Shown: positions 14,132-29,851 of the stretch, in pieces
Layout: every line of letters starts with the position of its first letter
Position numbering within the stretch: the stretch's first letter is position 1
Assembly: GCA_947589325.1 (NCBI GenBank)
Contig: CANQAM010000010.1
Location: 337-64,336 of the forward strand
Length of the DNA: 64,000 bases
Direction: 5' to 3'
Origin: an uncultured Bacteroidales bacterium
Lineage (GTDB): Bacteria; Bacteroidota; Bacteroidia; Bacteroidales; UBA11471
Position numbers and translations under genes: made by a program
The notes under the pieces: model-generated
Database searches by the model: none
What the model was told of the DNA's origin: nothing
Seen by the model: the letters and a program-made list of their open reading frames with translations, nothing else

Positions 14132-15445
14132 TTAGAGAGTACCAGAAATATAAAGAAGTTTGTAATAACTGAAAATCACGTCGATGCGGGCATTCACCAA
14201 TTCCGCTTCCGCCGCGAGCTTGGCGTTGCTTGCGTCGAGCATATCGGTGATGAGCGCCATGTCGTTTTGGTAGCGATTGTGTACGACGGCGTAGTTGCGG
14301 TTGGCAAGTTCCGCGCTCTTTTCCTGCGTCTGCACCGTCAGGTAGCTTTCGAGGTATTTTACGTATTCGGCTTGGACGGACAGCACGGTTTCTTCGGCTG
14401 CGTGTTCGCGGGTCTGCTGCGCGCGCCGTATCGACAGGCGGCTGCGCGACAGCTCGCGCGGCGACTTGAACAGCGCATCGAAATTGTATTTGATGCCCAC
14501 GCCCACATACCAGTAGTTGAAATTTTTGTCGATTGCCGGCACTTCGATGAGTATCGGACCGTTGAGGTTGTTGCCCGCGAAAAGGGCGATTTTCGGAATC
14601 CGGGTCGAGCGAATGATTTTGTTTTGCTGCTGCTCCATTTTTATGGCGATGTCGCACTGTTTCAGGGCGGGCGACTGTTCGATGCCCGATTTCGTCCAGT
14701 ACGACTCGTCCCCGACGGGAATCTCTTGCGTCAGGAGGGCGGTATCGGGCACGATTGCCGTGCCGGCAGGCAGTCCGAGCAGCACGACCAAATGGTTGTT
14801 GAGTATCGTCCGGTTGTTTTCGATGCGGGTGCGTTGCAGTTCGAGGTTCGACAGTTGCAGTTCGTAGCGCGTGATGTCGTTGTGCAGCACGACGCCCTCG
14901 CGCTCTTTGGCGCGCAACTCGTCGAGCACCTGTCGGGTTTGGGCGATGTTGGCATCGTAGACGCCGCTGAGGTTCTGCTGCTTGAACAGGTCGAGATAAT
15001 ACCCTACCAGCCTCAGCCGCGTTTTGTCGCGGGTATCTTCGAGCGTCCATCGGGCGCTTTCGCTTTGCAGGCGGGCGAGGTCGATGCTGCTCCGTATCGC
15101 TCCGCCGGAGTAGATGACCTGCGACGCCTCTACGGCAAGATTGTTTCCGAAATGGGGCATATCGATATTCATTTTATCGGAAAAATCGCGCTCCCACATA
15201 CGACCGTCGCCGATGTAGTTTACCGATACTTCGGCGCTGATTTCGGGCAGACGTGCGTTCTTTGCCTCTTTTATGGCGCGCAGACTCTCTTCCACGCCGG
15301 TTTTGTCGGCGCGCAGCGACTTGCTGTTTTCTTCGGCTAACGCGAACATTTCGTCTATGGATAGCCTTTTTTGTACGGATTCTTGGGCGTATGCCCCGTT
15401 GTACAGTATGCACGTGCATACCGTGAGCAAAATATATTTGTTCAT
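14132..15445 (-). CDS. TolC family outer-membrane efflux protein
   Basis: Signal peptide and two OEP repeats (ARLPEIS..., RIPKIALF...); start set at MNKYILL. Confidence 0.9.
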   Translation of the reverse strand: MNKYILLTVCTCILYNGAYAQESVQKRLSIDEMFALAEENSKSLRADKTGVEESLRAIKEAKNARLPEISAEVSVNYIGDGRMWERDFSDKMNIDMPHFGNNLAVEASQVIYSGGAIRSSIDLARLQSESARWTLEDTRDKTRLRLVGYYLDLFKQQNLSGVYDANIAQTRQVLDELRAKEREGVVLHNDITRYELQLSNLELQRTRIENNRTILNNHLVVLLGLPAGTAIVPDTALLTQEIPVGDESYWTKSGIEQSPALKQCDIAIKMEQQQNKIIRSTRIPKIALFAGNNLNGPILIEVPAIDKNFNYWYVGVGIKYNFDALFKSPRELSRSRLSIRRAQQTREHAAEETVLSVQAEYVKYLESYLTVQTQEKSAELANRNYAVVHNRYQNDMALITDMLDASNAKLAAEAELVNARIDVIFSYYKLLYISGTL

Positions 15446-15626
15446 GTGTAGGTGATAAGATGTGAATAATGAAACAGGGGTGAAACGCGCTTTCCTAATC
15501 GGAATTTTCACGACCCCACCGGTGGAAGTCGGCTAAGCGAAAAAAGATTTTTTGAATAAGTGCGGTGTAAGCGAAAGTGCGATTTTTTCTCATTGTCCGG
15601 CGGGACTGTATATCCCGTTCAGGCGA

Positions 15627-15634
15627 CAAAGGTA
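15627..15634 (-). promoter_or_regulatory. -7 element, candidate promoter of the efflux operon
   Basis: TACCTTTG on the minus strand, about 180 nt upstream of the TolC start. Confidence 0.45.
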
Positions 15635-15720
15635 GGAAAAATAAAAACGTAGGCGGATTCTGTATTAACAAATATTATGATTTTAACGTGCTGCTGTTGC
15701 CGGCATGGAAGGAAGCAGGC

Positions 15721-15760
15721 AATAAAAAAGCAAGCCCTGTTTACACAAACAAGGCTTGCT
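15721..15760 (-). terminator. Intrinsic terminator of the gltB-gltD-asnB transcript
   Basis: Minus strand AGCAAGCCTTGTTT-GTGT-AAACAGGGCTTGCT then TTTTTATT; a second hairpin lies at 15763-15791. Confidence 0.85.
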
Positions 15761-15798
15761 CCGGATTTGCCGTATGGCGGCGGCAAAATCCTCTCTCT

Positions 15799-15815
15799 AT
15801 GCAACAGAGTAAAAA
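15799..15815 (+). repeat. Inverted third copy of the gltB-flanking element
   Basis: ATGCAACAGAGTAAAAA, 15/16 identical to ATGCAACAAAGTAAAA; lies 5-21 nt after the asnB stop in the opposite orientation. Confidence 0.7.
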
Positions 15816-15819
15816 AGCA

Positions 15820-17484
15820 TCAATAACTTTGTTTATGGACGTTCTTTACAGCGCGTCCCGACGGGTCGTTGAGTTTCTTGAACGACTCGTCCCATTCCAG
15901 TGCCGTGGCGGTGCTGCAAGCGACCGACCGTTCGGACGGCACGCTGCGTGCGGCGGCATCGGAGGGGAAGTGTTCGGCAAAGATGGAGCGGTAGTAATAC
16001 TCCTCTTTGTTCATCGGCGGATTGATGGGGAAGCGTTCGGCGGCGTGCGCCATTTCTTCGTCCGACACCCGCTCGGAGGTAATCTGTTTGAGTACGTCGA
16101 TCCAACTGTACCCCACACCGTCGGAGAACTGCTCTTTCTGACGCCATGCCACGCTCGCGGGCAAAATGTCCTCGAAGGCTTTGCGCAGTATCCATTTCTC
16201 CATTTTCCCGTCTTTCGCCATTTTGGCTTCGGGGTTGAGGCGCATGGCTGTGTCCATGAAAGTCTTGTCGAGAAACGGCACGCGCCCTTCGACGCCCCAT
16301 GCCGAGAGCGATTTGTTGGCACGCAGGCAGTCGTAGAGGTAGAGCTTGCTGATTTTGCGCACGCACTCTTCGTGAAACGCCCGCGCGTCGGGCGCTTTGT
16401 GGAAGTAGAGGTAGCCGCCGAATATCTCGTCGGCGCCTTCGCCCGAGAGTACCATTTTTATGCCCATCGACTTGATGACGCGCGCCAGCAGGTACATCGG
16501 CGTGGAGGCGCGCACCGTCGTTACATCGTAAGTCTCGATGTAGTAGATGACGTCGCGCAGGGCGTCGAGACCCTCCTCTATGGTGAAGTTGATTTCGTGA
16601 TGCACCGTACCGATGTGCGCGGCGACCTGACGGGCAGCTTCGAGGTCGGGCGCCCCTTTCAGCCCTACGGCAAAAGAGTGCAGCTGCGGCCACCAAGCGT
16701 CGGAGCGGCTGCCCGATTCGATACGCTTGGCGGCATACTGTTTGGCGACAGCCGACACGATAGACGAGTCCAGCCCGCCCGACAGCAGTACGCCGTAGGG
16801 TACGTCGCTCATCAGCTGGCGGCGCACCGCATCGCATAGTGCGGCACGCAGCGCCTCGCCGTCGGCGCCGTTGTCTTTTACGGCGTCGTACTGCTCCCAG
16901 TCGCGTTTGTACCAGCGCACCATTTTGCCGCTCCGGCTGTCGTAGTAGTGTCCGGGTAGGAAAGGTGCGTAGTCGGTACACCACCCTTCGAGCGCTTTCA
17001 ATTCCGATGCCACATAGGTGCGACCCTCGCTGTCGTGCCCCATGTAGAGGGGTATCACGCCTATGGAGTCGCGGGCGATGAGGTAGCGGTCGTTTTCTTC
17101 ATCGTACAGCGCGAAAGCGAAAATGCCGTTGAGGTCTTCGAAAAAGTCGATGCCCTTTTTCCGGTAAAGCGCCAAGATGACTTCGCAGTCGGAACCCGTC
17201 CGGAAAGAATAGTCCTTGCAGATGCCCTCGCGCAGGTCGCGGTGGTTGTATATTTCGCCGTTTACGGAGAGTATCAGTTTGCCGTCGGGGCTTTTCAGCG
17301 GCTGCCCGCCTGAGGCGGGATCGACGATAGAGAGACGCTCATGCGCCAGAATCGCTGATTTCCCCACGTATATGCCCGACCAGTCGGGCCCCCGATGACG
17401 GATTTTTTTTGACATTTCCAATGCCTGCGCACGCAGCTGCGCCGCATTCTCTTTTATATCGAATATGCCTACGATTCCGCACAT
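15820..17484 (-). CDS. asnB: Asparagine synthetase B (glutamine-hydrolysing)
   Basis: N-terminal MCGI (Ntn Cys), RHRGPDWSG, LLSGGLDSS, SGEGADE, EGRVPFLD. Confidence 0.97.
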   Translation of the reverse strand: MCGIVGIFDIKENAAQLRAQALEMSKKIRHRGPDWSGIYVGKSAILAHERLSIVDPASGGQPLKSPDGKLILSVNGEIYNHRDLREGICKDYSFRTGSDCEVILALYRKKGIDFFEDLNGIFAFALYDEENDRYLIARDSIGVIPLYMGHDSEGRTYVASELKALEGWCTDYAPFLPGHYYDSRSGKMVRWYKRDWEQYDAVKDNGADGEALRAALCDAVRRQLMSDVPYGVLLSGGLDSSIVSAVAKQYAAKRIESGSRSDAWWPQLHSFAVGLKGAPDLEAARQVAAHIGTVHHEINFTIEEGLDALRDVIYYIETYDVTTVRASTPMYLLARVIKSMGIKMVLSGEGADEIFGGYLYFHKAPDARAFHEECVRKISKLYLYDCLRANKSLSAWGVEGRVPFLDKTFMDTAMRLNPEAKMAKDGKMEKWILRKAFEDILPASVAWRQKEQFSDGVGYSWIDVLKQITSERVSDEEMAHAAERFPINPPMNKEEYYYRSIFAEHFPSDAAARSVPSERSVACSTATALEWDESFKKLNDPSGRAVKNVHKQSY

Positions 17485-17491
17485 GGCTTTC

Positions 17492-18922
17492 TTATTTTAA
17501 GGTCGATAAATAACGGTCGATAGCTGCGGCGGTTTTGCGCCCCGAAGCGATGGCGCGCACCACGAGACCCGCACCGTAGGAGGCATCGCCGGCGGCGAAT
17601 ACCTTTGCGACGGAACTTTTGTTGTCGCTATCGACTGCCACGTTTTTACGTCCGTCGAGCGTAACGCCGAGATTTTCGAGCAACCCTTCGTAAACGGGGT
17701 GTACGAATCCCATTGCCAAGAACACCATATCGACGTCGAGAATTTCGGTCTCGGCAGCCCGCTGCGGCGTCATGCGGCCGTTTTCGTCGGTCGTCCAAGT
17801 TACCGGAGCCACTTCGACCTGTTTCAATACGCCGTTTTCGCCGATGAAGCGCACGGTATCGAGGCTCCACCGCCGTTCGCAGCCCTCTTGGTGCGACGAC
17901 GATGTTTTGAGTATCTGCGGGTATTGCGGCCACGGCGTCGCCGGATTTTTATCGACCGGCGGTTTGGGCATGATTTCTATTTGCAGCACGCTTGCGGCGC
18001 CCTGTCGTATGGCGGTGCCCACGCAGTCCGAACCCGTGTCGCCGCCGCCGATTACCAGCACCCGTTTGCCTTTGGCGGAGATGCGTTCTTCCGGTGCGAC
18101 CTCTGTGCCGGCATTGACGCGGTTTTGCTGCTTCAGCAGTTCGAGCGCGAAGTAAACGCCTTTGAGGTCGCGCCCTTCGACGCGGAGGTCGCGCGGCTCG
18201 CCCGCCCCGATAGCCACGCATACGGCATCGTATTCGTCGAGCATTTTTTTCAATGCCTTCTTGTCAGCGCCTACCGGTGCGTTGCAGAAGAAAGAGATGC
18301 CCTCTGTTTCGAGCAGCGCCTGACGGCGGTCGATAACGTTTTTGTTGAGTTTGAAATCGGGTATGCCGAGCCGCAGCAGTCCGCCGATGCGTTCGTCTTT
18401 TTCAAAAACTTCGACGGTGTGCCCCTTGCGGTTGAGCTGGTTGGCGCAGGCGAGCCCTGCCGGTCCCGAGCCGATGACTGCCACCTTCTTGCCCGTGCGG
18501 GTGTGAGGCGGACACGCCACGACATACCCTTCGGAAAAGGCTTTTTCGATAATGGCGGCTTCGTTGTTGCGCACGGTTACCGGCGCATTTGCCGAGAGCC
18601 CCAGCACGCACCCTTTTTCACAGAGCGCCGGACAGACACGTCCCGTAAATTCGGGAAAGTCGTCGGTTTCCTGCAAGAGGCGGTAAGCCTCCCGCCAGTT
18701 TCCTTTATACACGGCGTCCTGCCATTCGGGCTGGCGGTTGCCCAGCGGGCAGTTCCAGTGGCAGAAGGGCACGCCGCAGTCCATGCAGCGCGAGGCTTGC
18801 GTGCGGCACTCTTCGTCGTGGAAGGTAAGCTCCACTTCGGCAAAATCGGTTTTTCGTTGTTGAACGGGACGGTATCCCGCTTCTTTTCTTCCTATGGTAA
18901 GAAATGCTTTCGGATTTCCCAT
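17492..18922 (-). CDS. gltD: Glutamate synthase small subunit
   Basis: RCMDCGVPFCHWNCP, GRVCPALCE, GSGPAG, IGGGDTGSDC, FAAGD. Confidence 0.96.
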   Translation of the reverse strand: MGNPKAFLTIGRKEAGYRPVQQRKTDFAEVELTFHDEECRTQASRCMDCGVPFCHWNCPLGNRQPEWQDAVYKGNWREAYRLLQETDDFPEFTGRVCPALCEKGCVLGLSANAPVTVRNNEAAIIEKAFSEGYVVACPPHTRTGKKVAVIGSGPAGLACANQLNRKGHTVEVFEKDERIGGLLRLGIPDFKLNKNVIDRRQALLETEGISFFCNAPVGADKKALKKMLDEYDAVCVAIGAGEPRDLRVEGRDLKGVYFALELLKQQNRVNAGTEVAPEERISAKGKRVLVIGGGDTGSDCVGTAIRQGAASVLQIEIMPKPPVDKNPATPWPQYPQILKTSSSHQEGCERRWSLDTVRFIGENGVLKQVEVAPVTWTTDENGRMTPQRAAETEILDVDMVFLAMGFVHPVYEGLLENLGVTLDGRKNVAVDSDNKSSVAKVFAAGDASYGAGLVVRAIASGRKTAAAIDRYLSTLK

Positions 18923-18929
18923 GATTCTT

Positions 18930-18950
18930 TTACTTTTTACTTTGTTGCAT
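18930..18950 (-). other. Candidate minigene MQQSKK* between gltB and gltD
   Basis: ATG CAA CAA AGT AAA AAG TAA; starts 2 nt after the gltB stop and ends 7 nt before the gltD ATG. Translation is unproven. Confidence 0.35.
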
Positions 18951-18953
18951 GAT
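18935..18953 (-). repeat. 19 bp direct repeat, copy at the gltB 3' end
   Basis: ATCATGCAACAAAGTAAAA, identical to 23452-23470. Confidence 0.9.
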
Positions 18954-21900
18954 TAATAGTCCCGTTCCACTTTCTCGATTTTCTGTTGCAGCGATTTTAT
19001 TTTCTCTTCTTGCAGCACTTTCTTGTACTCGATAGGCATCACTTTGATAAATTGCGATACGTATTCGTCCCAGTTTTCGAGCATACGTTTGGCGAGGGGA
19101 CTGTGCGTGTTCTCGTAGTGGTTGGCGATGAGGCCGTGCAGCTCTTTGTTGTCGGCGGCATCTTCGATGAGCGAAAGTTCCACCATCTCCATATTGCAGA
19201 AGAAGTCGAAATCGTCGTTCTTGTTCCACACGTAGGCGATACCGCCGCTCATGCCGGCGGCGAAGTTGCGACCCACTTTGCCGAGTACCACCGTGCGACC
19301 GCCCGTCATGTATTCGCAGCAGTGGTCGCCCACGCCTTCGACGACGGCTGTCGCGCCGCTGTTGCGCACGCAGAAACGTTCGCCCACGATGCCGTTGATA
19401 TAGACTTCGCCCGACGTGGCGCCATAGAGCAGCGTGTTGCCGGCGATGATGTTTTCTTCGGGTGCGAACGACGAGCCTTTCGGCGGAATGACGATGATTT
19501 TGCCGCCCGAGAGTCCTTTGCCCAAATAGTCGTTGGCTTCGCCCGAGAGGCAGAAGGTTACGCCGTGTGCGAGGAATGCGGCGAAGCTCTGACCTGCCGA
19601 GCCGATGAAGTTGCACCGTATCGTGTCGTCGGGCAGACCGGCGTTTCCGAACCGCGTGGCTATCTCGCCCGAAAGCATGGCGCCCGTCGAGCGGTCGGTG
19701 TTGCATATCGGCAGATGCAGCTCGATGGGCATCAGCGATTTAAGCGACGGAAGCGCTGCCTTTATCAGCCGCTGGTCTATCACGTCTTCGATTTGGTGCG
19801 CCTGCTCCTTGATTTTGCGGCAGGCATGTTTTTCAGCCTCTGCCGGACGGTAGAGTATGCGCGAAAGGTCGAGTTTGTCTATCGTGTGGTCGCCTACGGG
19901 AGGTTTCGGGAAAAGCAGGTCGGAGCGGCCGATGATGTCGTCCATTTTGGTGAAGCCCATTTCCGCCAGCCACTCCCGCACTTCCTGCGCGAGGAAGGTG
20001 AAGAAATTGACGAGGTATTCCGACCGTCCGAGGAAGCGTTTGCGCAGCTCTGCATTCTGCGTGGCGACGCCCACCGGACAGGTGTTCATGTGGCATTTGC
20101 GCATCATCACACAGCCCAAGACGATGAGTGCGCTGGTGGCAAATCCGAATTCTTCGGCGCCGAGCAGCGCTTGTATGATGATGTCGCGTCCGGTTTTCAG
20201 CTGTCCGTCCACTTGCAGCGTTACCTGCCCGCGCAAGTTGTTGAGTACGAGCGTCTGCTGCGTTTCGGAAAGACCTATTTCCGACGGCAGTCCGGCGTGC
20301 TTTATCGAGCTGGCGGGACTTGCTCCCGTGCCGCCTTCGCAGCCGCTGATGACAATCATGTCGGCTTTGGCTTTGGCTACGCCGGCGGCAATGGTGCCCA
20401 CGCCGCTCTCTGATACCAGCTTCACGCTGATGCGGGCGCGGGGATTCACGTTTTTCAAATCGAAAATGAGCTGTGCCAAGTCTTCGATAGAGTAAATGTC
20501 GTGGTGCGGGGGAGGCGAGATGAGCGAAATGCCCGGTATGGAGTGGCGGGTGCGCGCAATCACTTCATCGACTTTGAATCCGGGCAGCTGCCCGCCTTCT
20601 CCGGGTTTTGCGCCCTGCGCCACCTTGATTTGTATTTCGTCGGCATTCACCAAATATTCGGTCGTTACGCCGAAGCGTCCCGATGCTACCTGCTTGATGG
20701 CGCTGCGAGCCGACGTACCGTCTTCGCGCGGAACGAAGCGTTCGGCATCTTCGCCGCCTTCGCCCGTGTTGCTCTTGCCGCCCAGTTTGTTCATGGCGAT
20801 AGCCATAGCTTCGTGCGCCTCCTTGCTGATAGAACCGAACGACATGGCGCCCGTTACGAAACGGCGCGTTATGGCTTCGACAGGCTCTACCAGCGAAATA
20901 TCGATGGGGTTGCGTTTGAAGTCGAGGCGGTCGCGTAGGAATACCGGCTGCTCCTTGCCATCGACCATGGCGGTAAATTCTTTGAATTTCTTGTAGCTGC
21001 CCAGACGGGTCGCCAGTTGCAGGGTTGATATGGTTTCGGGATTCCATGCGTGGAATTCGCCGTTTTTGCGGAAGCTGTAAATGCCGTTGTGGTTGAGGTA
21101 CTGTTCTTTGTCGATGTAAGCCTCCGCATGGAATTTGACGATGTCGCGGTAAATCTCTTCGAGCGTTACGCCGCCTATTTTGGAAGTCGTGCCGCAGAAA
21201 TAACGGTCTATCAATTCCTGTGAAATGCCGACAGCCTCGAACAGCTGGGCGCCCCAATAGCTGCCTATCGTGGAGATGCCCATTTTGGAGATGACTTTCA
21301 ACAATCCTTTGTTCACCGCTTTCACGTAATTTTTTTCGGCGGTGTGGTAGTCGAGCTGTATCTGTTTGTCGTTTACCAACTGGTTGATGACGGCAAAAGC
21401 CATGTAGGGGTTTACCGCGCTGGCGCCATAGCCTATCAGCAGGGCGAAGTGCATTACTTCACGAACCTCGCCGGTCTCTACGACGATAGCTGTCTGCACA
21501 CGCATACGCTTGGCGATAAGGTGGTTGTGTACGGCGGAGACGGCGAGCAGCGACGGTATGGGCACCTGCGTTTCGTCAGCCTCCTTGTCGGAGAGTATGA
21601 TGTAGTTGAAGTCGGCTTTCACCGCCTGTTCGGCTTCGGCGCAGAGGCGGTCGATACCCTCTGCCAACCCTTGTGCGCCGGAATTGAGGTCGAACGTCAT
21701 CGACAGCGTTTTGGTGCGGAAGCCCTTGTAGCGCAGGTTGCGCAGAATATCGAGGTCGGCGTTGGTGATGACGGGCGATTTGATATTGACCATCTTGCAC
21801 AGCTCCGGCGACTGCACTAACAGATTTTTGTTGATGACGCCGATGTAGTTGCCGAGCGACATCACCAACTCTTCGCGAATGGGGTCGATAGGCGGGTTGG

Positions 21901-23467
21901 TTACCTGCGCGAACTGTTGCCGGAAGTAGTGGAACAGCAGCTGCGGCTTCTGCGAAAAGAGAGCCAGCGGCGTGTCGTTGCCCATAGAGGCGATAGGCTC
22001 TTTGCTTTCGGTGGTCATGGGTATGATGATGCGCTCCACATCTTCTTTGTGGTAACCGAATGTATGCAGGTGAGCCGCATAGTCGGGCACGTCGTAGCGC
22101 ACGGTGCGACCCGAACTGATGGTGTCGAGTTTCACGCGGTTTTTGGATAGCCACTCCCGATAGGGGTATGCCGAAGCCAGCTGCTCTTTCAACTCTTCGT
22201 CGCGATAGATTTTACCTTTCTCGGTGTCGATGAGAATCAGTTTGCCGGGTTGCAGACGTCCTTTTTCTTTGATGTCGGCGCCGTCGAACGGCAGAACGCC
22301 CGCCTCCGAAGCAATGACCATCATATCGTTTTGCGTGATGAGGTAGCGGGCGGGGCGCAGACCGTTGCGGTCGAGCATACCGCCGGCGTAGCGACCGTCG
22401 GAAAAGAGCAACGTGGCGGGACCGTCCCACGGCTCCATGAGAATACTGTGGTATTCGTAAAACGCTTTCAGATTCTCGGAAATGGGGTTTTTCTCGTTGA
22501 AACTTTCGGGAATCATCATGGAGAGTACATGGGGCAGGCTCATGCCCGACATCATGAAAAATTCGAGTACGTTGTCTAACGACGCGCTGTCGCTCATTTC
22601 GGGTTGCACGATAGGTTTCAGTGCGTCGATGCCTACGCCGAGCACGTCGGGCTGCAACACGCTTTCGCGCGCCTCCATCCATTTGCGGTTGCCCCGTATG
22701 GTATTTATTTCGCCGTTGTGCCCCAGCAGGCGGAACGGCTGCGCCAGACTCCACGTGGGGAACGTGTTGGTGCTGAAACGCGAGTGTACCAGCGCCATGC
22801 CGCTGGTGAAATAGGGATTTATCAGGTCGAGGTAGTAGTAGCGTAGTTGCAGCGACGTAAGCATACCTTTATATACAAGGTTCCGGTTCGAGAGCGAAAC
22901 GATGTAGAAATCTTTTTTCAAGGCGATATCCGAGTGCAACACTTTTGCCTCTATTTTTTTGCGCAGAACGTACAGGGCGCGGCTCAACGCCGTTTCGTCC
23001 ATTTCGTTCGGGGCGGTGATGAAAAGCTGCTTTATGGCGGGTTCGGTGGCTGCCGAGCCTTCGCCGAGTATTTCGCTGTTCACCGGCACGTCGCGTATGG
23101 TGAGCAGTTGCAGTCCGGCGCCGGAAATTTCGCTTTCGATGATAGCGATGAGGGCTTCTTGGTCGGCGGTCTCTTTGGGGAGAAAGACAAGCCCTGTACC
23201 GTAATGACCTTTTTCGGGTACGGGGATTCCTTGCAGGAGAATGAACTCGTGCGGAATCTGCACCATGATGCCCGCGCCGTCGCCCGTTTTGGGGTCGGCG
23301 CCTTCCGCCCCGCGGTGATTCATGTGTTCGAGCACCTGCAAAGCGTTTTCGACGATTTGATGCGACTTGCCGCCGTGAATGTTCACCAGCAGACCGACAC
23401 CGCAGGCGTCGTGTTCGTAATCGGGGCTGTACAGACCTTGTTCTTGTAATCTTTTACTTTGTTGCAT
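18953..23467 (-). CDS. gltB: Glutamate synthase large subunit
   Basis: EHDACGVG (Ntn Cys), HSRFSTNT, HNGEINT, GAMSFGS, KVAQGAKPGEGGQLPG, CVMMRKCHMNTCPVGVATQ. Start set at MQQSKR. Confidence 0.97.
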   Translation of the reverse strand: MQQSKRLQEQGLYSPDYEHDACGVGLLVNIHGGKSHQIVENALQVLEHMNHRGAEGADPKTGDGAGIMVQIPHEFILLQGIPVPEKGHYGTGLVFLPKETADQEALIAIIESEISGAGLQLLTIRDVPVNSEILGEGSAATEPAIKQLFITAPNEMDETALSRALYVLRKKIEAKVLHSDIALKKDFYIVSLSNRNLVYKGMLTSLQLRYYYLDLINPYFTSGMALVHSRFSTNTFPTWSLAQPFRLLGHNGEINTIRGNRKWMEARESVLQPDVLGVGIDALKPIVQPEMSDSASLDNVLEFFMMSGMSLPHVLSMMIPESFNEKNPISENLKAFYEYHSILMEPWDGPATLLFSDGRYAGGMLDRNGLRPARYLITQNDMMVIASEAGVLPFDGADIKEKGRLQPGKLILIDTEKGKIYRDEELKEQLASAYPYREWLSKNRVKLDTISSGRTVRYDVPDYAAHLHTFGYHKEDVERIIIPMTTESKEPIASMGNDTPLALFSQKPQLLFHYFRQQFAQVTNPPIDPIREELVMSLGNYIGVINKNLLVQSPELCKMVNIKSPVITNADLDILRNLRYKGFRTKTLSMTFDLNSGAQGLAEGIDRLCAEAEQAVKADFNYIILSDKEADETQVPIPSLLAVSAVHNHLIAKRMRVQTAIVVETGEVREVMHFALLIGYGASAVNPYMAFAVINQLVNDKQIQLDYHTAEKNYVKAVNKGLLKVISKMGISTIGSYWGAQLFEAVGISQELIDRYFCGTTSKIGGVTLEEIYRDIVKFHAEAYIDKEQYLNHNGIYSFRKNGEFHAWNPETISTLQLATRLGSYKKFKEFTAMVDGKEQPVFLRDRLDFKRNPIDISLVEPVEAITRRFVTGAMSFGSISKEAHEAMAIAMNKLGGKSNTGEGGEDAERFVPREDGTSARSAIKQVASGRFGVTTEYLVNADEIQIKVAQGAKPGEGGQLPGFKVDEVIARTRHSIPGISLISPPPHHDIYSIEDLAQLIFDLKNVNPRARISVKLVSESGVGTIAAGVAKAKADMIVISGCEGGTGASPASSIKHAGLPSEIGLSETQQTLVLNNLRGQVTLQVDGQLKTGRDIIIQALLGAEEFGFATSALIVLGCVMMRKCHMNTCPVGVATQNAELRKRFLGRSEYLVNFFTFLAQEVREWLAEMGFTKMDDIIGRSDLLFPKPPVGDHTIDKLDLSRILYRPAEAEKHACRKIKEQAHQIEDVIDQRLIKAALPSLKSLMPIELHLPICNTDRSTGAMLSGEIATRFGNAGLPDDTIRCNFIGSAGQSFAAFLAHGVTFCLSGEANDYLGKGLSGGKIIVIPPKGSSFAPEENIIAGNTLLYGATSGEVYINGIVGERFCVRNSGATAVVEGVGDHCCEYMTGGRTVVLGKVGRNFAAGMSGGIAYVWNKNDDFDFFCNMEMVELSLIEDAADNKELHGLIANHYENTHSPLAKRMLENWDEYVSQFIKVMPIEYKKVLQEEKIKSLQQKIEKVERDY

Positions 23468-23470
23468 GAT
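23452..23470 (-). repeat. 19 bp direct repeat, copy spanning the gltB start codon
   Basis: ATCATGCAACAAAGTAAAA, identical to 18935-18953. Confidence 0.9.
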
Positions 23471-23487
23471 GATATTGTTTTTTTGAA

Positions 23488-23560
23488 ACCTGCCCGACAA
23501 ACCGAATGAATGCCCAAAAAATTCGGTTTGCCGGAACAGGTCGTCTCCTTATGCAAGGAG
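23488..23560 (-). promoter_or_regulatory. Two stem-loops in the glnA-gltB spacer
   Basis: ACCTG..CAAACCGAAT / ATTCGGTTTG..CAGGT (23488-23541) and CTCCTT-ATGC-AAGGAG (23545-23560); no U tract on the coding strand. Confidence 0.55.
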
Positions 23561-23576
23561 TTGGTAAGAATTGAAT

Positions 23577-25763
23577 TTAACGAATGAATAACAGTTCTCT
23601 GTATTTGGGGAGAGGCCACATCTCGTTATCGACGATAAGTTCGAGTTTGTCGATGTGGTAGCGTATCTCGTCCATCAAGGGCACCACCGTGTCGTGGTAG
23701 GCAATGGCTTTTTCGCGTTCGTCGGTGATTTTGTTCGCCACTTTGCGGGCATCGACCAATGCATCGACTTTGGTGATTACCGTAGAAATATGTTTCGATA
23801 CCTTGCGCACCACCTTCGTATCTTCTTCCGAAAGCGTTTTGGCTTCATCGGCGGGGAAGAGGGCGTTGAATTTGGCGATGTTGTCGAGCAGTATCGACTG
23901 GTAGCGCGAGGCTACGGGCACGATGTGGTTCATTGCCAAATCGCCGAGTACGCGGGCTTCGATTTGTATCTTTTTGGTGTAGGTTTCCCATTTCACCTCG
24001 CAGCGCGACTGCAATTCCACTTCGCTCATCACCTTCGTGTCGGTGAAGATTTTTACATTCTTGGGACGCAGGTAGGCATCGAAATTCAGAGGTACGCTCG
24101 TTTCGCAGTCGAGACCGCGGCGGGCGGCTTCGGCTTTCCATTCCTCGCTGTAACCGTTGCCGTCGAAGCGTATGGCTTTACACTCTTTTATCAGTTTGCG
24201 TATCACGGTGAAGATAGCTTTTTCTTTCTGCGTACCCGCTGCGATGAGGCTTTCGACTTCGGCATAGAAGTCGTTGAGCTGGGCGGCTACGGCGGTGTTG
24301 AGCACAATCATGGCGGCGCCGCAGTTTGCCGACGAGCCGACAGCGCGGAATTCGAAGCGGTTGCCCGTGAAGGCGAAGGGCGACGTGCGGTTGCGGTCGG
24401 TGTTGTCGATGAATATTTCGGGAATATGGGCTACGCCGATTTTGATGCCGGCTTTCGGGTCCATCTTGATAGCTTCATCGGTCGTTGCCGATTCGAGTTT
24501 GTCGAGCACTTCCGAAATCTGTTTTCCGAGAAATACCGAAACGATGGCGGGAGGCGCCTCGTTCGCACCCAGACGGTGGGCGTTGGTAGCCGAGCAGATA
24601 GAGGCTTTCAGCAGGTCGTTGTGTTTGTAAACCGCCATGAGCACGTTTACGAGGAAGGTAACGAATTGCAGGTTTTCCATACCGTTCTTGCCCGGAGCGA
24701 GAAGGTTTACGCCGGTGTTGGTGCCCATCGACCAGTTGTTGTGTTTTCCCGAGCCGTTGATGCCCTTGAAAGGCTTTTCGTGCAGAAGCACGCGGAAGTT
24801 GTGGCGGCGGGCCACTTTCTTCATCAGCGACATGAGCAGGAGGTTATGGTCGTTTGCCAAGTTGGTTTCCTCGAAAATGGGAGCTACCTCGAACTGGTTG
24901 GGTGCCACTTCGTTGTGGCGGGTCTTCACGGGAATGCCGAGTTTCAGACACTCTCTTTCGAGGTCGGACATGAACGCGAGCACGCGGGTGGGAATGGAGC
25001 CGAAATAGTGGTCTTCGAGCTGCTGGTTTTTCGCGCTGTCGTGTCCCATGAGGGTACGACCGGTGAGCACGAGGTCGGGACGGGCGGCATACAGAGCCTC
25101 ATCGACCAAGAAGTATTCCTGTTCCCACCCGAGATAGGAGAATACTTTGGTTACGTTTTCGTCGAAGAAATGGCATACTTTCACGGCAGCTTCGCTCATG
25201 GCGGAGATAGCTTTCAGCAGCGGGGTTTTGTAGTCGAGCGCTTCGCCGGTGTAGGAGATGAACACGGTGGGAATACAGAGGGTGTCGCCTACCACGAATG
25301 CGGGCGACGAGGGGTCCCATGCCGAATATCCGCGAGCCTCGAACGTGTTGCGGATTCCGCCGCTCGGGAAGCTCGATGCGTCCGGTTCCTGTTGGATAAG
25401 AATTTTACCGGAAAATTCCTCGATGACGGCGCCTTTTTCAAACTCGATGAACGAGTCGTGTTTTTCGGCGGTGCCGCCCGTAAGAGGTTGGAACCAGTGG
25501 GTATAGTGGGTCGCGCCTTGTTCCATAGCCCATTGTTTCATGCCGGTAGCCACGCCGTCGGCATATTCGCGGCTCAGCGGCGTGCCGTTGTCGATAGCGT
25601 CGATGATGGCATTGTAAGTTCTTTTGGAAAGATACTTCGCCATGGCGGCGCGGTTGAAAACGTGTTCGCCGAAAAATTCCGACGGACGTTTTTCTTCCGG
25701 TTCGAGTACGACGGCTTTGCGTTTGAAAGCCTCGTCCAGCAATTTGAATCTAAGTGTACTCAT
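23577..25763 (-). CDS. glnA: Glutamine synthetase type III
   Basis: 728 aa; THWFQPLTG..AEKHDSF, EPDASSFPSGG, HNEVAPNQFE, GINGSGKHNNWS, RLGANEAPP, WPLPKYRELLF. Confidence 0.95.
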   Translation of the reverse strand: MSTLRFKLLDEAFKRKAVVLEPEEKRPSEFFGEHVFNRAAMAKYLSKRTYNAIIDAIDNGTPLSREYADGVATGMKQWAMEQGATHYTHWFQPLTGGTAEKHDSFIEFEKGAVIEEFSGKILIQQEPDASSFPSGGIRNTFEARGYSAWDPSSPAFVVGDTLCIPTVFISYTGEALDYKTPLLKAISAMSEAAVKVCHFFDENVTKVFSYLGWEQEYFLVDEALYAARPDLVLTGRTLMGHDSAKNQQLEDHYFGSIPTRVLAFMSDLERECLKLGIPVKTRHNEVAPNQFEVAPIFEETNLANDHNLLLMSLMKKVARRHNFRVLLHEKPFKGINGSGKHNNWSMGTNTGVNLLAPGKNGMENLQFVTFLVNVLMAVYKHNDLLKASICSATNAHRLGANEAPPAIVSVFLGKQISEVLDKLESATTDEAIKMDPKAGIKIGVAHIPEIFIDNTDRNRTSPFAFTGNRFEFRAVGSSANCGAAMIVLNTAVAAQLNDFYAEVESLIAAGTQKEKAIFTVIRKLIKECKAIRFDGNGYSEEWKAEAARRGLDCETSVPLNFDAYLRPKNVKIFTDTKVMSEVELQSRCEVKWETYTKKIQIEARVLGDLAMNHIVPVASRYQSILLDNIAKFNALFPADEAKTLSEEDTKVVRKVSKHISTVITKVDALVDARKVANKITDEREKAIAYHDTVVPLMDEIRYHIDKLELIVDNEMWPLPKYRELLFIR

Positions 25764-25806
25764 TTCTTTTTTACTTTATGTTTGAGAGTTGTTTATTTCA
25801 TATAAA

Positions 25807-25832
25807 GAGGGGAGAGGGTAGTACCCCTCCCC
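25807..25832 (-). terminator. GC-rich hairpin between amt and glnA (weak terminator or stabiliser)
   Basis: GGGGAG.GGGT..ACCC.CTCCCC stem followed by TCTTTAT on the minus strand. Confidence 0.45.
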
Positions 25833-25838
25833 GTAAAA

Positions 25839-27212
25839 TCAGTTGTAAGCCGATTCGCCGTGTTCGTAGATGTCGAGTCCCTCTTCTTCGATGCGTTTGG
25901 GAACGCGCAGACCGTGAATGAGGTCGAGAACCTTGAAAATGACGAATCCCATGCCGGCAGCCCAAGCTCCTACGACGACTGCACCGAATGTTTGGGCAAG
26001 AAAGAAATTCCAGCTTCCGCAGTAGAAAAGTCCGTTCGTCGTGCAGAAAAGACCGGTGAGAATCGTGCCGAGAAATCCGCATACGCCGTGTACCGACGAT
26101 GCGCCCACAGGGTCGTCGATTTTGAGTACGTGGTCGATGAAATCGACGGCGAGTATCATTACGACGCCGCAAATGATGCCGATGATTACGGCACCGCCCG
26201 GCGATACGAGGTCGCACCCAGCCGTGATGCCCACCAGTCCTGCCAAGATGCCGTTAAGCGTCAGCGACAGGGAGGGTTTGCCGTATTTTATCCAGCTGGT
26301 AACCAACGAGGCGAATCCGCCGGCACAGGCTGCCAGATTGGTTGTCAGGAATACGTGCGAAATGGCGGTATAGTTACCTTCGCCCGAAGCTGCCAGCTGC
26401 GAACCAGGGTTGAATCCGAACCACCCGAACCAGAGAATGAACACGCCGAGTGCGCCGAGCGTGAGGTTGTGTCCGGGTATGGCGTGCGACTTGCCCTCTT
26501 TGTATTTGCCGAGACGGGGCCCGAGAATGGCTGCCCCCACGAAAGCGATGGCGCCGCCTACCAAGTGTACGACGGTGGAACCGGCGAAGTCGTGAAACGT
26601 GATGCCGAAAGTGCGCATCATGAAGCTCCCTTCATCGCCGTTCATCAACCAGCCGCCGCCCCACGTCCAGTGTCCGGAAACGGGATAAATCAACACGCTG
26701 ATACATACGGTGTAAATCAAGTACATCGAAAATTTGGTGCGTTCTGCCATAGCTCCCGAAACAATCGTGGCGGAGGTGGCGCAGAACACGGTCTGGAAAA
26801 TGAGGAATCCCTCGATGGGCAGACCGTTGTCGATGATTTCCTCCATCTTCGCCAAGTCGAAGAAGTGAGGCATGCCCACGAAAGCTCCGATGCCGAACAT
26901 CAGGCTGAATCCGATAAGCCAGTAGAGCAGTGAACCGAGCATGAAATCTATAAAGTTTTTCATCAAAATGTTCGCCGTGTTTTTCGTGCGGGTGAAGCCG
27001 GCTTCCACCAAGGCGAATCCGGGTTGCATGAAAAACACCAGCATGGCGGCGAGCAGCATCCATACCACGTCGAGCGACGTTGCCAGCTCGGCAATCGACA
27101 GCGGAGCAGCCGCCGTTTCTTCCGCAGCGGCGACCGCCTCTTCTTGTGCGGCGGCTCCGGAAGTAAAGAGCGTAATCGTCATCAAAACGATGAACATACC
27201 TATTTTTTTCAT
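25839..27212 (-). CDS. amt: Ammonium transporter
   Basis: FFMQPGFAL, DFAGSTVVH, WFGWFGFNPGS, NGILAGLVGITA, DDPVGASSVHG, GLDIYEHGE. Confidence 0.97.
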   Translation of the reverse strand: MKKIGMFIVLMTITLFTSGAAAQEEAVAAAEETAAAPLSIAELATSLDVVWMLLAAMLVFFMQPGFALVEAGFTRTKNTANILMKNFIDFMLGSLLYWLIGFSLMFGIGAFVGMPHFFDLAKMEEIIDNGLPIEGFLIFQTVFCATSATIVSGAMAERTKFSMYLIYTVCISVLIYPVSGHWTWGGGWLMNGDEGSFMMRTFGITFHDFAGSTVVHLVGGAIAFVGAAILGPRLGKYKEGKSHAIPGHNLTLGALGVFILWFGWFGFNPGSQLAASGEGNYTAISHVFLTTNLAACAGGFASLVTSWIKYGKPSLSLTLNGILAGLVGITAGCDLVSPGGAVIIGIICGVVMILAVDFIDHVLKIDDPVGASSVHGVCGFLGTILTGLFCTTNGLFYCGSWNFFLAQTFGAVVVGAWAAGMGFVIFKVLDLIHGLRVPKRIEEEGLDIYEHGESAYN

Positions 27213-27620: not shown

Positions 27621-27632
27621 TTATTTCTGCAT
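27621..27632 (-). other. Candidate minigene MQK* between the porin and P-II genes
   Basis: ATG CAG AAA TAA; 4 nt after the upstream stop, 12 nt before the P-II ATG. Confidence 0.25.
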
Positions 27633-28517: not shown

Positions 28518-28587
28518 TTAAAAAAGCAATCTTCTTTCGTTTTCATAACCAATCTTTTTTACCTAACCTTTTACCTTTTTACCTATA

Positions 28588-29820
28588 TTATATCTTCCAA
28601 TTTTTTATCCGTTCCACCGCTTCTTCGACTTCGCTGCGTTCGCCGAATGCCGTCAGTCGCAGATAGCCCTCTCCGCCCGGACCGAATCCTACGCCGGGCG
28701 TACCCACGACGTGGCATTCGTAAAGCAGCCTGTCAAAGAATTTCCACGAGTCGATGCCGCCGGGCGTCTTCAACCAGATGTAGGGGGCGTTGATGCCGCC
28801 ATACACTTCGAGCCCTGCTGAGGCAAGCCCTTCGCGTATGATGCGGGCGTTCTCCATGTAGTAGGCGATGTTGGCGCGTATCTCTTTCTGTCCCTGCGGG
28901 GTGTATATCGATTCTGCCGCCCGTTGTACGATATAGGCAGTGCCGTTGAATTTCGTGCTTTGCCGGCGGTTCCACAAGCGGTTGAGGTCGGCACGCTCGC
29001 CGTTGAGGCGGAATGCCCGCAGCTCTTTGGGTACGACCGTGTAGCCGCAGCGCAGTCCCGTGAATCCTGCCGTTTTCGAGAAGCTGCGAAATTCGATGGC
29101 AACCTGTTTGGCTCCCCGTATTTCGTATATGCTGTGCGGCACGTCGCTCTCGCTGATGAAGGCTTCGTAGGCGGCATCGAAAAGAATCAGTACATCGTTT
29201 TTCAAAGCGTAATCGACCCACTTTTTCAACTCTTTTTTGGTGAGAGTCGTTCCCGTCGGGTTGTTGGGGTAGCAGAGATAAATGATGTCGGGAGTTTCTT
29301 TCGGCAGCTCCGGAATGAACTTGTTTTCGGCGCAGCAAGGTATGTAGGCGATGTCGCTCCACCGTCCGTCGGGCAGCAGGTTGCCGGCGCGGCAGCCCAT
29401 CACGTTGGTATCGACGTAAACGGGATACACGGGGTCGGTTATCGCCACGCGGTTTTCTTTGCTCAATATGTCGCCGATGTTTCCCGTGTCGCTTTTGGCA
29501 CCGTCGCTGATGAACACTTCCGTCGGGTCGATGTGTACGCCGCGCGTTTCGAAGTCGTGTTTGATGATGGCGTCGATGAGAAACCGGTAGCCCTGTTCGG
29601 GACCGTATCCGTGAAAAGTGGCTGCATCGCCCATTTCATCGACGGCTTTGTGCAGGGCGGCGATGACGGTCGGCGGCAGCGGACGGGTTACATCGCCGAT
29701 TCCCAATCGTATGATGCGGGCTTCGGGGTGTATGATTTTATAAGCGTTCACTTTCCGTGCTATCTCCGTGAAAAGGTAGCTTTCGGTGAGCTTCAAAAAT
29801 TGTTCGTTTACTAATGCCAT
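28588..29820 (-). CDS. dapL: LL-diaminopimelate aminotransferase
   Basis: [46 protein letters not shown] (PLP Lys), TPGVGFG. Confidence 0.95.
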
Positions 29821-29827
29821 AATGCTT

Positions 29828-29845
29828 CTATCTTTTTCGTTGCAT
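29828..29845 (-). other. Candidate minigene MQRKR* between dapF and dapL
   Basis: ATG CAA CGA AAA AGA TAG; 6 nt after the dapF stop, 7 nt before the dapL ATG. Confidence 0.25.
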
Positions 29846-29851
29846 AAATTT

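Follow-up and report, generated by a model that had tools for sequence, protein, structure and literature searches.

A candidate antisense element in the asnB 3' untranslated region, complementary to the gltB and gltD start regions in a genus of uncultured Bacteroidales

We analysed a stretch of 64,000 nucleotides (the window) from an uncultured Bacteroidales bacterium (assembly GCA_947589325.1, contig CANQAM010000010.1, positions 337 to 64,336 of the forward strand), in which the two genes of glutamate synthase, gltB and gltD, are followed by asnB, the gene of a glutamine-hydrolysing asparagine synthase. The untranslated region at the 3' end (3'UTR) of asnB opens with a U-rich antisense seed, GCUUUUUUACUCUGUUGCAUAG, which is complementary to the initiation regions of gltB and gltD, and both the seed and its complementarity are conserved in the genus. 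Based on the sequence comparisons described below, we suggest that the seed carried by the asnB 3'UTR probably occludes these start regions, either in cis or as a processed small RNA (sRNA). An earlier note on this DNA had offered three models for a repeat at these sites, namely recombination sites, an antisense RNA, and a protein-binding site or scar of operon assembly. We favour the antisense model, and it is backed by the invariant seed, a triad of copies exclusive to the operon, substitutions that preserve pairing, additional targets and parallels in other genera. The recombination model found no support.

Copies of the repeat and their uniqueness

The repeat claim of the earlier note, one short element recurring on gene boundaries, was borne out. 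The 19-mer ATCATGCAACAAAGTAAAA has two exact matches on the minus strand (18935-18953 and 23452-23470) and no further match within the window when up to 3 mismatches are allowed, and two matches were reached in 0 of 100 shuffles. A 15/16 copy, ATGCAACAGAGTAAAA, lies in the opposite orientation (plus strand) at 15799-15814. The first sense copy starts 3 nt 5' of the gltB ATG and covers it; the first base of the second is the last base of the gltB TAA, and its end lies 12 nt before the gltD ATG; the inverted copy ends 5 nt past the asnB TGA. We estimate that tens of 15/16 pairs are expected between any two points of the 64 kb window, and that the chance of a 15/16 match to an already picked-out element is about 1e-3; the reality of the repeat is settled by its conservation in relatives. 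A genome-wide search for the 16-mer, named beforehand as a test, matched no unrelated loci, and with at most one mismatch only three sites are found in the whole assembly (2.35 Mb, 51% G+C).

The asnB 3'UTR element

From 5' to 3', the asnB 3'UTR consists of a U-rich single strand, two stem-loops (SL1 and SL2) and an intrinsic terminator. Its parts are as follows.

15721-15819, minus strand: asnB 3'UTR of about 99 nt, a candidate regulatory RNA, starting directly past the asnB TGA (15820-15822) and reaching to the terminator U-tract
15785-15815, minus strand: invariant 31-nt block UUUUUACUCUGUUGCAUAGAGAGAGGAUUUU (seed, SL1 and base of SL2), identical in five lineages
15799-15814, minus strand: core of the seed, RNA UUUUACUCUGUUGCAU (the inverted 16-mer), complement of AUGCAACA(A)AGUAAAA with one central mismatch
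15795-15809, minus strand: SL1 hairpin, CUCUGU-UGC-AUAGAG, present in the minimum free energy (MFE) fold of 5 of 7 species, its 6 pairs never varying
15763-15791, minus strand: SL2 hairpin, its lower 6 pairs invariant
15721-15762, minus strand: intrinsic terminator with a 16-bp stem and U-tract, found by terminator scan (stem 15762-15727)

The seed has two arms, GUUGCAU and UUUUUUACU. In the MFE folds of G003 and G010, the SL1 stretch pairs with downstream sequence instead. Between lineages, the upper part of the SL2 stem shows changes that look compensatory by eye (GCCG/CGGC, CCG/CGG and CUC/GAG), and all of the 14 modelled pairs of the terminator are paired (100%), 2 of them with counted compensatory changes. 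The hairpins are thus kept as structure and the 5' part is kept as sequence, which is the signature of a seed or of a specific binding site. With the asnB coding sequence as yardstick, the conservation of the seed exceeds the neutral expectation. Across the five lineages (the fifth being the metagenome contig L211), the third-codon identity of asnB is 42-59%, with 15.5% of its third positions unchanged throughout, and no invariant stretch within its 1665 nt exceeds 14 nt, compared with 31 nt in the 3'UTR. As in 3'UTR-derived sRNAs, the element lies within the 3'UTR of a coding gene and shares the intrinsic terminator of that gene.

A covariance model of the 3'UTR (R1) matched all operon-bearing species of the genus with 107-122 bits. 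In 400 other genomes of the order, R1 gave weak terminator-like matches only, none of them beside asnB, gltB or gltD, and a scan of both strands of 15000-26500 against Rfam 15 gave no match up to E=5. A 21-mer pattern searched with 3 mismatches in 300 genomes yielded chance matches only, the best of which (L034) lies in an unrelated AT-rich spacer. In a sigma-70 scan of 15500-16000 and 23380-23700 no promoter was found, and the TAnnTTTG motif, looked for by eye only, was not spotted. We also considered an open reading frame (ORF) that starts from the inverted copy on the plus strand (ATG CAA CAG AGT AAA AAA) and runs for 346 aa here; its length in other lineages is 8-170 aa, and we rejected it as a shadow ORF.

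Conservation of the triad within the genus

The genus comprises 11 species representatives of uncultured Bacteroidales, of which 7 carry gltB-gltD-asnB and 4 lack the operon altogether. The check in relatives that the earlier note had proposed gave a clear result: the triad of copies is kept in all seven operon-bearing species, and so is the 3'UTR element (7/7). In six of the seven genomes with the operon, the pattern TGCAACN{1,2}AGTARRARR occurs at exactly three sites: one on the gltB start, one between gltB and gltD, and one, inverted, behind asnB. The seventh, G004, a fragmented assembly, has a fourth copy in its dapL leader. In each of the four species without the operon there are 0-1 matches, and a reversed control pattern gave one match across all 11 genomes.

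These copies vary as follows. At the gltB start the variants are TGCAAC-AA-AGTAAAAGA, -AC-AGTAAAAGA, -AC-AGTAGAAAA and -AC-AGTAGGAAA, and in the gltB-gltD spacer they are -AA-AGTAAAAAG, -AA-AGTAAAAAA, -C-AGTAAAAAA and -A-AGTAAAAAA. The complement of the seed is constant, TGCAAC-AG-AGTAAAAAA, with one U fewer in G004. Within the arms, the sense copies show A/G substitutions opposite U only, by which G-U pairing is retained. Transversions and indels are confined to the central linker (AA, AC, C or A), which is never complementary.

Predicted pairing with start regions

The sense copies, as putative targets of the seed, are the following.

23450-23470, minus strand: sense copy 1 at the gltB start codon, pairing from +1 to +18; duplex -20.1 kcal/mol, mean unpaired probability 0.69
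18933-18953, minus strand: sense copy 2 between gltB and gltD (spacer of 30 nt), at -28 to -11 relative to the gltD ATG; duplex -19.1 to -20.5 kcal/mol, mean unpaired probability 0.73
25766-25788, minus strand: weaker sense copy 3 in the glnN leader, CTCTCAAACATAAAGTAAAAAAG; duplex -15.4 kcal/mol here and -17.5 to -18.7 kcal/mol in other lineages
29828-29848, minus strand: weaker sense copy 4 in the dapL leader, TTTATGCAACGAAAAAGATAG, degenerate; duplex -17.5 to -20.8 kcal/mol

The two main sites are predicted to be more open than their surroundings, for which the unpaired probability is 0.54-0.58. In every lineage, the duplexes of the seed with the gltB and gltD sites are predicted at -18 to -25 kcal/mol. 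The 3'UTR motif is complementary to the initiation regions of gltB and gltD, as in the icaR type of regulation, and the complementarity is conserved in all lineages, with glnN and dapL as weaker cases. In clade 2 the glnN leader carries CTATCTCTAAACAATATAGTAAAAAA. At the homologous place, the dapL leader of G004 holds the full motif, ATGCAACAAAGTAAAAAATAG, and those of G003 and G006 hold other partial complements of the seed.

When whole start regions were compared with the seed, dapL, glnN, gltB and gltD gave -15.4 to -23.3 kcal/mol over all lineages, and dapF, the porin gene, glnK, amtB and asnB of the same cluster gave -7 to -11 kcal/mol. Against the genome background (about 1620 approximate start regions), -15 or lower is reached by 7.8%, -17.5 or lower by 2.6% and -20 or lower by 0.8% of the regions. 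By a rough binomial estimate for this genome, the probability that 4 of 9 cluster genes pass -15 is about 3e-3. In G003 all four targets are at -18.5 kcal/mol or lower, for which the same estimate would be lower still if the same null holds. Relative to the start codon, the motif lies at +1 for gltB, at -28 for gltD, at about -22 for glnN and at about -28 for dapL. Such variable offsets are possible for an antisense target; a fixed operator or enhancer should not vary in this way.

As a separate observation, the best wobble-tolerant match to the seed in this whole genome (G000), its own locus excepted, is ATTTTTATGTAACAGAGGGAAAAGAA on contig C4 (64962-64987, minus strand; score 39), beyond the window, which could be a further target.

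Proposed mechanism

In Bacteroidota, Shine-Dalgarno sequences are not used and initiation needs A-rich, unstructured leaders (PMC7366714), and pairing at such leaders should for this reason block initiation. In the proposed mechanism, the seed would pair in two arms around an internal loop of 1-2 nt with gltB +1 to +18, and would also pair with -28 to -11 of the gltD leader and, less perfectly, with the glnN and dapL leaders. The paired sites would lie in the stretch that the 30S subunit must occupy on mRNAs without a Shine-Dalgarno sequence, and a duplex over the gltB start codon or over the A-rich stretch before gltD would block 30S binding. Initiation would then be prevented for glutamate synthase (GOGAT), and probably for glutamine synthetase (GS) and LL-diaminopimelate (LL-DAP) aminotransferase. 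The net result would be a feedback from the 3' end of the operon mRNA onto the enzymes of glutamine and glutamate, which would balance the consumers of glutamine.

The products of all four putative target genes use or make glutamate or glutamine, and so does AsnB. We infer pairing in cells, repression as its direction and the physiological role from the sequence and the predicted energies. The targets in the glnN and dapL leaders favour an action in trans or a very long transcript. To our knowledge, Hfq is lacking in Bacteroidota.

Parallels in other Bacteroidales genera

We compared 39 complete gltB-gltD-asnB operons from 29 lineages. Ranking by RNAduplex was noisy across families from long internal loops, and it was replaced by the score of the best ungapped helix that the gltB 5' region can form with the 48 nt counted from the asnB stop, with all cross-lineage pairings as the null (99th percentile 26, maximum 31). 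The genus of the window scored 36, g63 scored 30 (p 0.002), and g140 and Leyella scored 27 each (p 0.01). A score of at least 27 was thus obtained in 4 of the 29 lineages, compared with 0.98% of the cross-lineage pairs.

In g140, UUUUUUGUAUAGCAG after asnB stands opposite CUGCUAUGCAAA at the gltB start (7 species readable at both sites). Of the species that have asnB in the operon or whose contig is cut upstream, 9 of 9 show the motif UGUAUAGCAG behind asnB, with a U-run before it. The motif is absent from 6 species without gltB/gltD within about 7.5 kb upstream of asnB and from 1 species whose contig ends there. In g63, CUCUUUCAAUAUU is found behind the stop codons of both gltB and asnB, and it faces codons 8-13 of gltB. 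This arrangement is the mirror of that in the window, with two antisense copies and one sense target. In L108 (G312) and L206 (G431) of g63, an identical stretch of 12-13 nt (CTCTTTCAATAT or CTCTTTCGGTGT) lies directly past both stops. The differences between two species of g63, among them three A-to-G changes, are wobble-compatible. An apparent compensatory change in G432, also of g63, would require a 2-nt register shift and has a background-level score, and it was left out of the count.

These parallels are supportive of an antisense role but not decisive. On the same comparisons, we propose tentatively, and with less confidence than the antisense role itself, that a seed co-evolving with the starts of gltB and gltD, and here also with those of glnN and dapL, may be a general means of tuning the GS-GOGAT node, using different sequences in at least three genera.

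A separate observation from these operons concerns L103 (G369), L105 (G267), L109 (G139) and L111 (G361), which belong to various further genera of Bacteroidales. Their gltB-gltD spacers are 160-210 nt long and are taken up by long palindromes or by tandem repeats; that of G369, for instance, contains ...cataattcataatgcataattcataatt...aattatgaattatgcattatgaattatgaatt. They may be structured intercistronic elements.

Weighing of the antisense reading and its alternatives

Several observations weigh against the antisense reading. First, the seed itself is not fully free: it is partly tied up in SL1 and in a local helix formed with the final codons of asnB (mean unpaired probability 0.35). Second, the centre of the duplex is mismatched in every lineage, and the A/G changes in gltB are also conservative Lys/Arg exchanges, which makes them weak as evidence of pairing. 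Third, taken one by one, the copies at glnN (p about 0.07) and dapL (p about 0.025) are weak in this genome, and under wobble-tolerant scoring about two dozen other genomic sites equal the two main targets in their match to the seed. Finally, most other Bacteroidales with the operon, including Bacteroides, Phocaeicola, Parabacteroides and Prevotellaceae, lack such complementarity; the cross-family statistic was picked after the data had been seen; and AsnB is most similar among the three positive genera, which may therefore not be independent.

The alternative that survives best, which we nevertheless regard as unlikely, is that the conserved 3'UTR block serves the stability of the mRNA 3' end, termination efficiency or protein binding, and that its complementarity to start regions is incidental. 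The sense copies would then be alike as variants of a favoured A-rich initiation module or from a small duplication. This explanation accounts for an invariant block that is longer than its complementary part and for an SL1 that never varies. It also agrees with the generality of A-rich leaders in Bacteroidota (PMC7366714), with the equal scores of those two dozen other sites and with the frequency of 'ATCATG' as a start context within the cluster. It does not explain why the bipartite motif is confined to the operon in 7 species (in G004 also to the dapL leader), or why 2-4 start regions of one pathway match the 3'UTR in each lineage while the other five cluster genes do not. Moreover, analogous pairs with different sequences exist in two other genera, and an exact 19-nt repeat between two specified short regions is far above chance.

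Less probable still is that all copies bind one nitrogen-responsive protein, either a DNA-binding regulator that recognises its site in either orientation or a translational regulator that binds the sense copies as RNA. Such a protein would be suited by a motif of two conserved half-sites, TGCAAC and AGTAAAA, found at nitrogen-assimilation genes only. However, the distance between the half-sites differs by 1 nt, and by a larger amount in the copies at dapL and glnN, the offset from the start codon ranges from +1 to -28, and the motif is no palindrome. The complementary copy in the 3'UTR would not be recognised by a protein that binds RNA, and this copy, located in a structured RNA with a terminator, is the most conserved of all. 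The protein-site or assembly-scar model of the earlier note accordingly fits poorly with the variable spacing and position.

The gltB-gltD spacer copy holds a six-codon mini-ORF inside it.

18930-18950, minus strand: mini-ORF ATG CAA CAA AGT AAA AAG TAA inside sense copy 2

It is improbable that this copy is a translated relay minigene (MQQSKK) that couples gltD translation to gltB termination and copies the well-initiating gltB start, and in any case such a minigene would be compatible with the antisense reading. In most lineages its ATG lies 2-8 nt past the gltB stop and its TAA 7-8 nt before the gltD ATG, and the length of six codons is kept in most lineages as well. Similar Met-Gln minigenes precede dapL and glnK in this genome (ATGCAACGAAAAAGATAG at 29828-29845 and ATGCAGAAATAA at 27621-27632, both on the minus strand). 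Against this, the frame of L211 is not kept at six codons and enters gltD out of frame, clade 2 shows GTG and another peptide, G003 and G006 lack the minigenes before dapL and glnK, and the inverted, invariant copy in the 3'UTR is left unexplained. The peptide is probably not the selected feature, and for the dapL minigene the better reading is a degenerate version of the target motif, the full motif being present in G004.

Finally, the direct and inverted copies on gene boundaries could in form be recombination sites at which gltB is excised, or at which either gltD-asnB or the entire operon is inverted, so that nitrogen assimilation would be phase-variable. We consider this highly improbable, since gene order and orientation do not differ among the 7 genomes and 4 metagenome contigs of the genus, and the centres of the sites differ (in this genome AA versus AG; in clade 2 C, AC and AG, and an indel as well) although crossover regions must match. 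The earlier note had found no invertase in the window, and the same holds for the whole contig: the tyrosine recombinase family PF00589 is represented by three genes on contigs C14, C53 and C60 only, and the serine recombinase family PF00239 has no match in the genome. An inversion here would also have no evident regulatory logic.

Gene cluster and neighbouring features

The nine genes of the cluster, all on the minus strand, are in the order dapF, dapL, a TorF-like porin gene, glnK, amtB, glnN, gltB, gltD and asnB. The gene names gltB, gltD and asnB in the earlier note agree with the profile matches.

18953-23467, minus strand: gltB, glutamate synthase large subunit (NF008730, 1782 bits)
17492-18922, minus strand: gltD, glutamate synthase small subunit (TIGR01317, 558 bits)
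15820-17484, minus strand: asnB, glutamine-hydrolysing asparagine synthase B (NF006949, 923 bits)
23577-25763, minus strand: glnN, type III glutamine synthetase

The product of dapL is LL-DAP aminotransferase. The gltB-gltD spacer is 30 nt and the gltD-asnB spacer 7 nt long. In the two stretches scanned, 15500-16000 and 23380-23700, the sole terminator-like site on the coding strand is the one after asnB.

The 109-nt glnN-gltB spacer contains a strong hairpin at about 23494-23540 (minus strand), CCGGCAAACCGAAU...AUUCGGUUUGUCGGG, which is extended by flanking pairs and has no U-tract after it. In relatives, a hairpin of other sequence stands in this spacer and is followed by a conserved GGCAGGTTTC. 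Candidate roles for the hairpin are a processing site, a stabiliser and a leaky terminator. Past the dapL stop, at about 28555-28590 (minus strand), there is a run of GTAAAA-type repeats, ATAGGTAAAAAGGTAAAAGGTTAGGTAAAAAAGATT, which resembles the AGTAAAAAG half of the target motif. Two very long ORFs on the plus strand, 23655-25805 antisense to glnN (716 aa) and 15577-16839 antisense to asnB (420 aa), look like shadow ORFs able to mislead gene callers; the one antisense to asnB is not conserved in relatives.

Comparison with known systems

Post-transcriptional control is poorly known in Bacteroidota, and the literature that we searched holds no RNA regulator of their GS-GOGAT node. If the proposed mechanism is true, the last 3'UTR of an operon feeds back on the first cistrons of that operon and on its neighbours, which would combine regulation of the icaR type with that of the GlnZ type. 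A compact set of one seed and two to four targets would also help to study how initiation is blocked on mRNAs without Shine-Dalgarno sequences. The host genus is known from metagenome-assembled genomes only, and a surrogate Bacteroides host is therefore needed for tests.

Site-specific recombinases drive phase variation at invertible DNA segments of Bacteroidales. Our locus resembles these in that short inverted repeats flank a DNA segment. It differs from them in the lack of an adjacent recombinase and of an alternative orientation in the assemblies, in the mismatched centres, and in that a housekeeping operon is enclosed instead of a promoter.

Some sRNAs of Bacteroides thetaiotaomicron, in the same phylum, among them GibS, have an unstructured 5' seed that pairs across the start codons of their targets (PMC7366714), and the element described here likewise has a 5' seed followed by hairpins and an intrinsic terminator. 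GibS, however, is intergenic, has its own promoter and acts on glycan-related genes, while our candidate is located in the asnB 3'UTR. In B. thetaiotaomicron, 21 UTR-derived sRNA candidates have been mapped (PMC7366714); an asnB 3'UTR RNA or a GOGAT-targeting RNA is not mentioned in that paper, and the searched literature describes neither for Bacteroides.

Closer in parentage is GlnZ, an sRNA from the glnA 3'UTR of Enterobacteriaceae (PMC9731577; bioRxiv 10.1101/2022.04.01.486790). Both lie in the 3'UTR of a nitrogen-assimilation mRNA and share the terminator of its gene; GlnZ acts by base pairing on metabolic genes, and our candidate would do likewise. GlnZ depends on Hfq and targets sucA, glnP and others rather than the start regions of its own pathway. 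There is no homology in sequence or structure between the two (Rfam was negative), and here asnB is the parent gene, with GOGAT, GS and DapL themselves as predicted targets.

In the icaR mRNA of Staphylococcus aureus, a 3'UTR motif pairs with the ribosome-binding region of its own transcript and controls translation and decay (PMC3868564), and a 5'/3'-UTR interaction is also known for hbs of B. subtilis (PMC5737220). The likeness lies in a 3'UTR motif that is complementary to the ribosome-binding region of its own transcript, which in our case would be a putative gltB-gltD-asnB mRNA. In icaR and hbs, however, the transcript is monocistronic and the 3'UTR faces a Shine-Dalgarno sequence, whereas here the 3'UTR behind the last cistron of an operon of about 7.8 kb faces the starts of the first two, the start codon or an A-rich leader would be covered, and two upstream genes are possible further targets. 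The earlier note knew of no description of such an arrangement; this holds for the locus and the phylum within the searched literature, but the kind of mechanism is already known. What appears to be new, as far as the sequence comparisons indicate, is that the last 3'UTR of an operon faces the first cistrons of the same operon together with neighbouring genes of the pathway, with asnB as the parent gene and in Bacteroidota.

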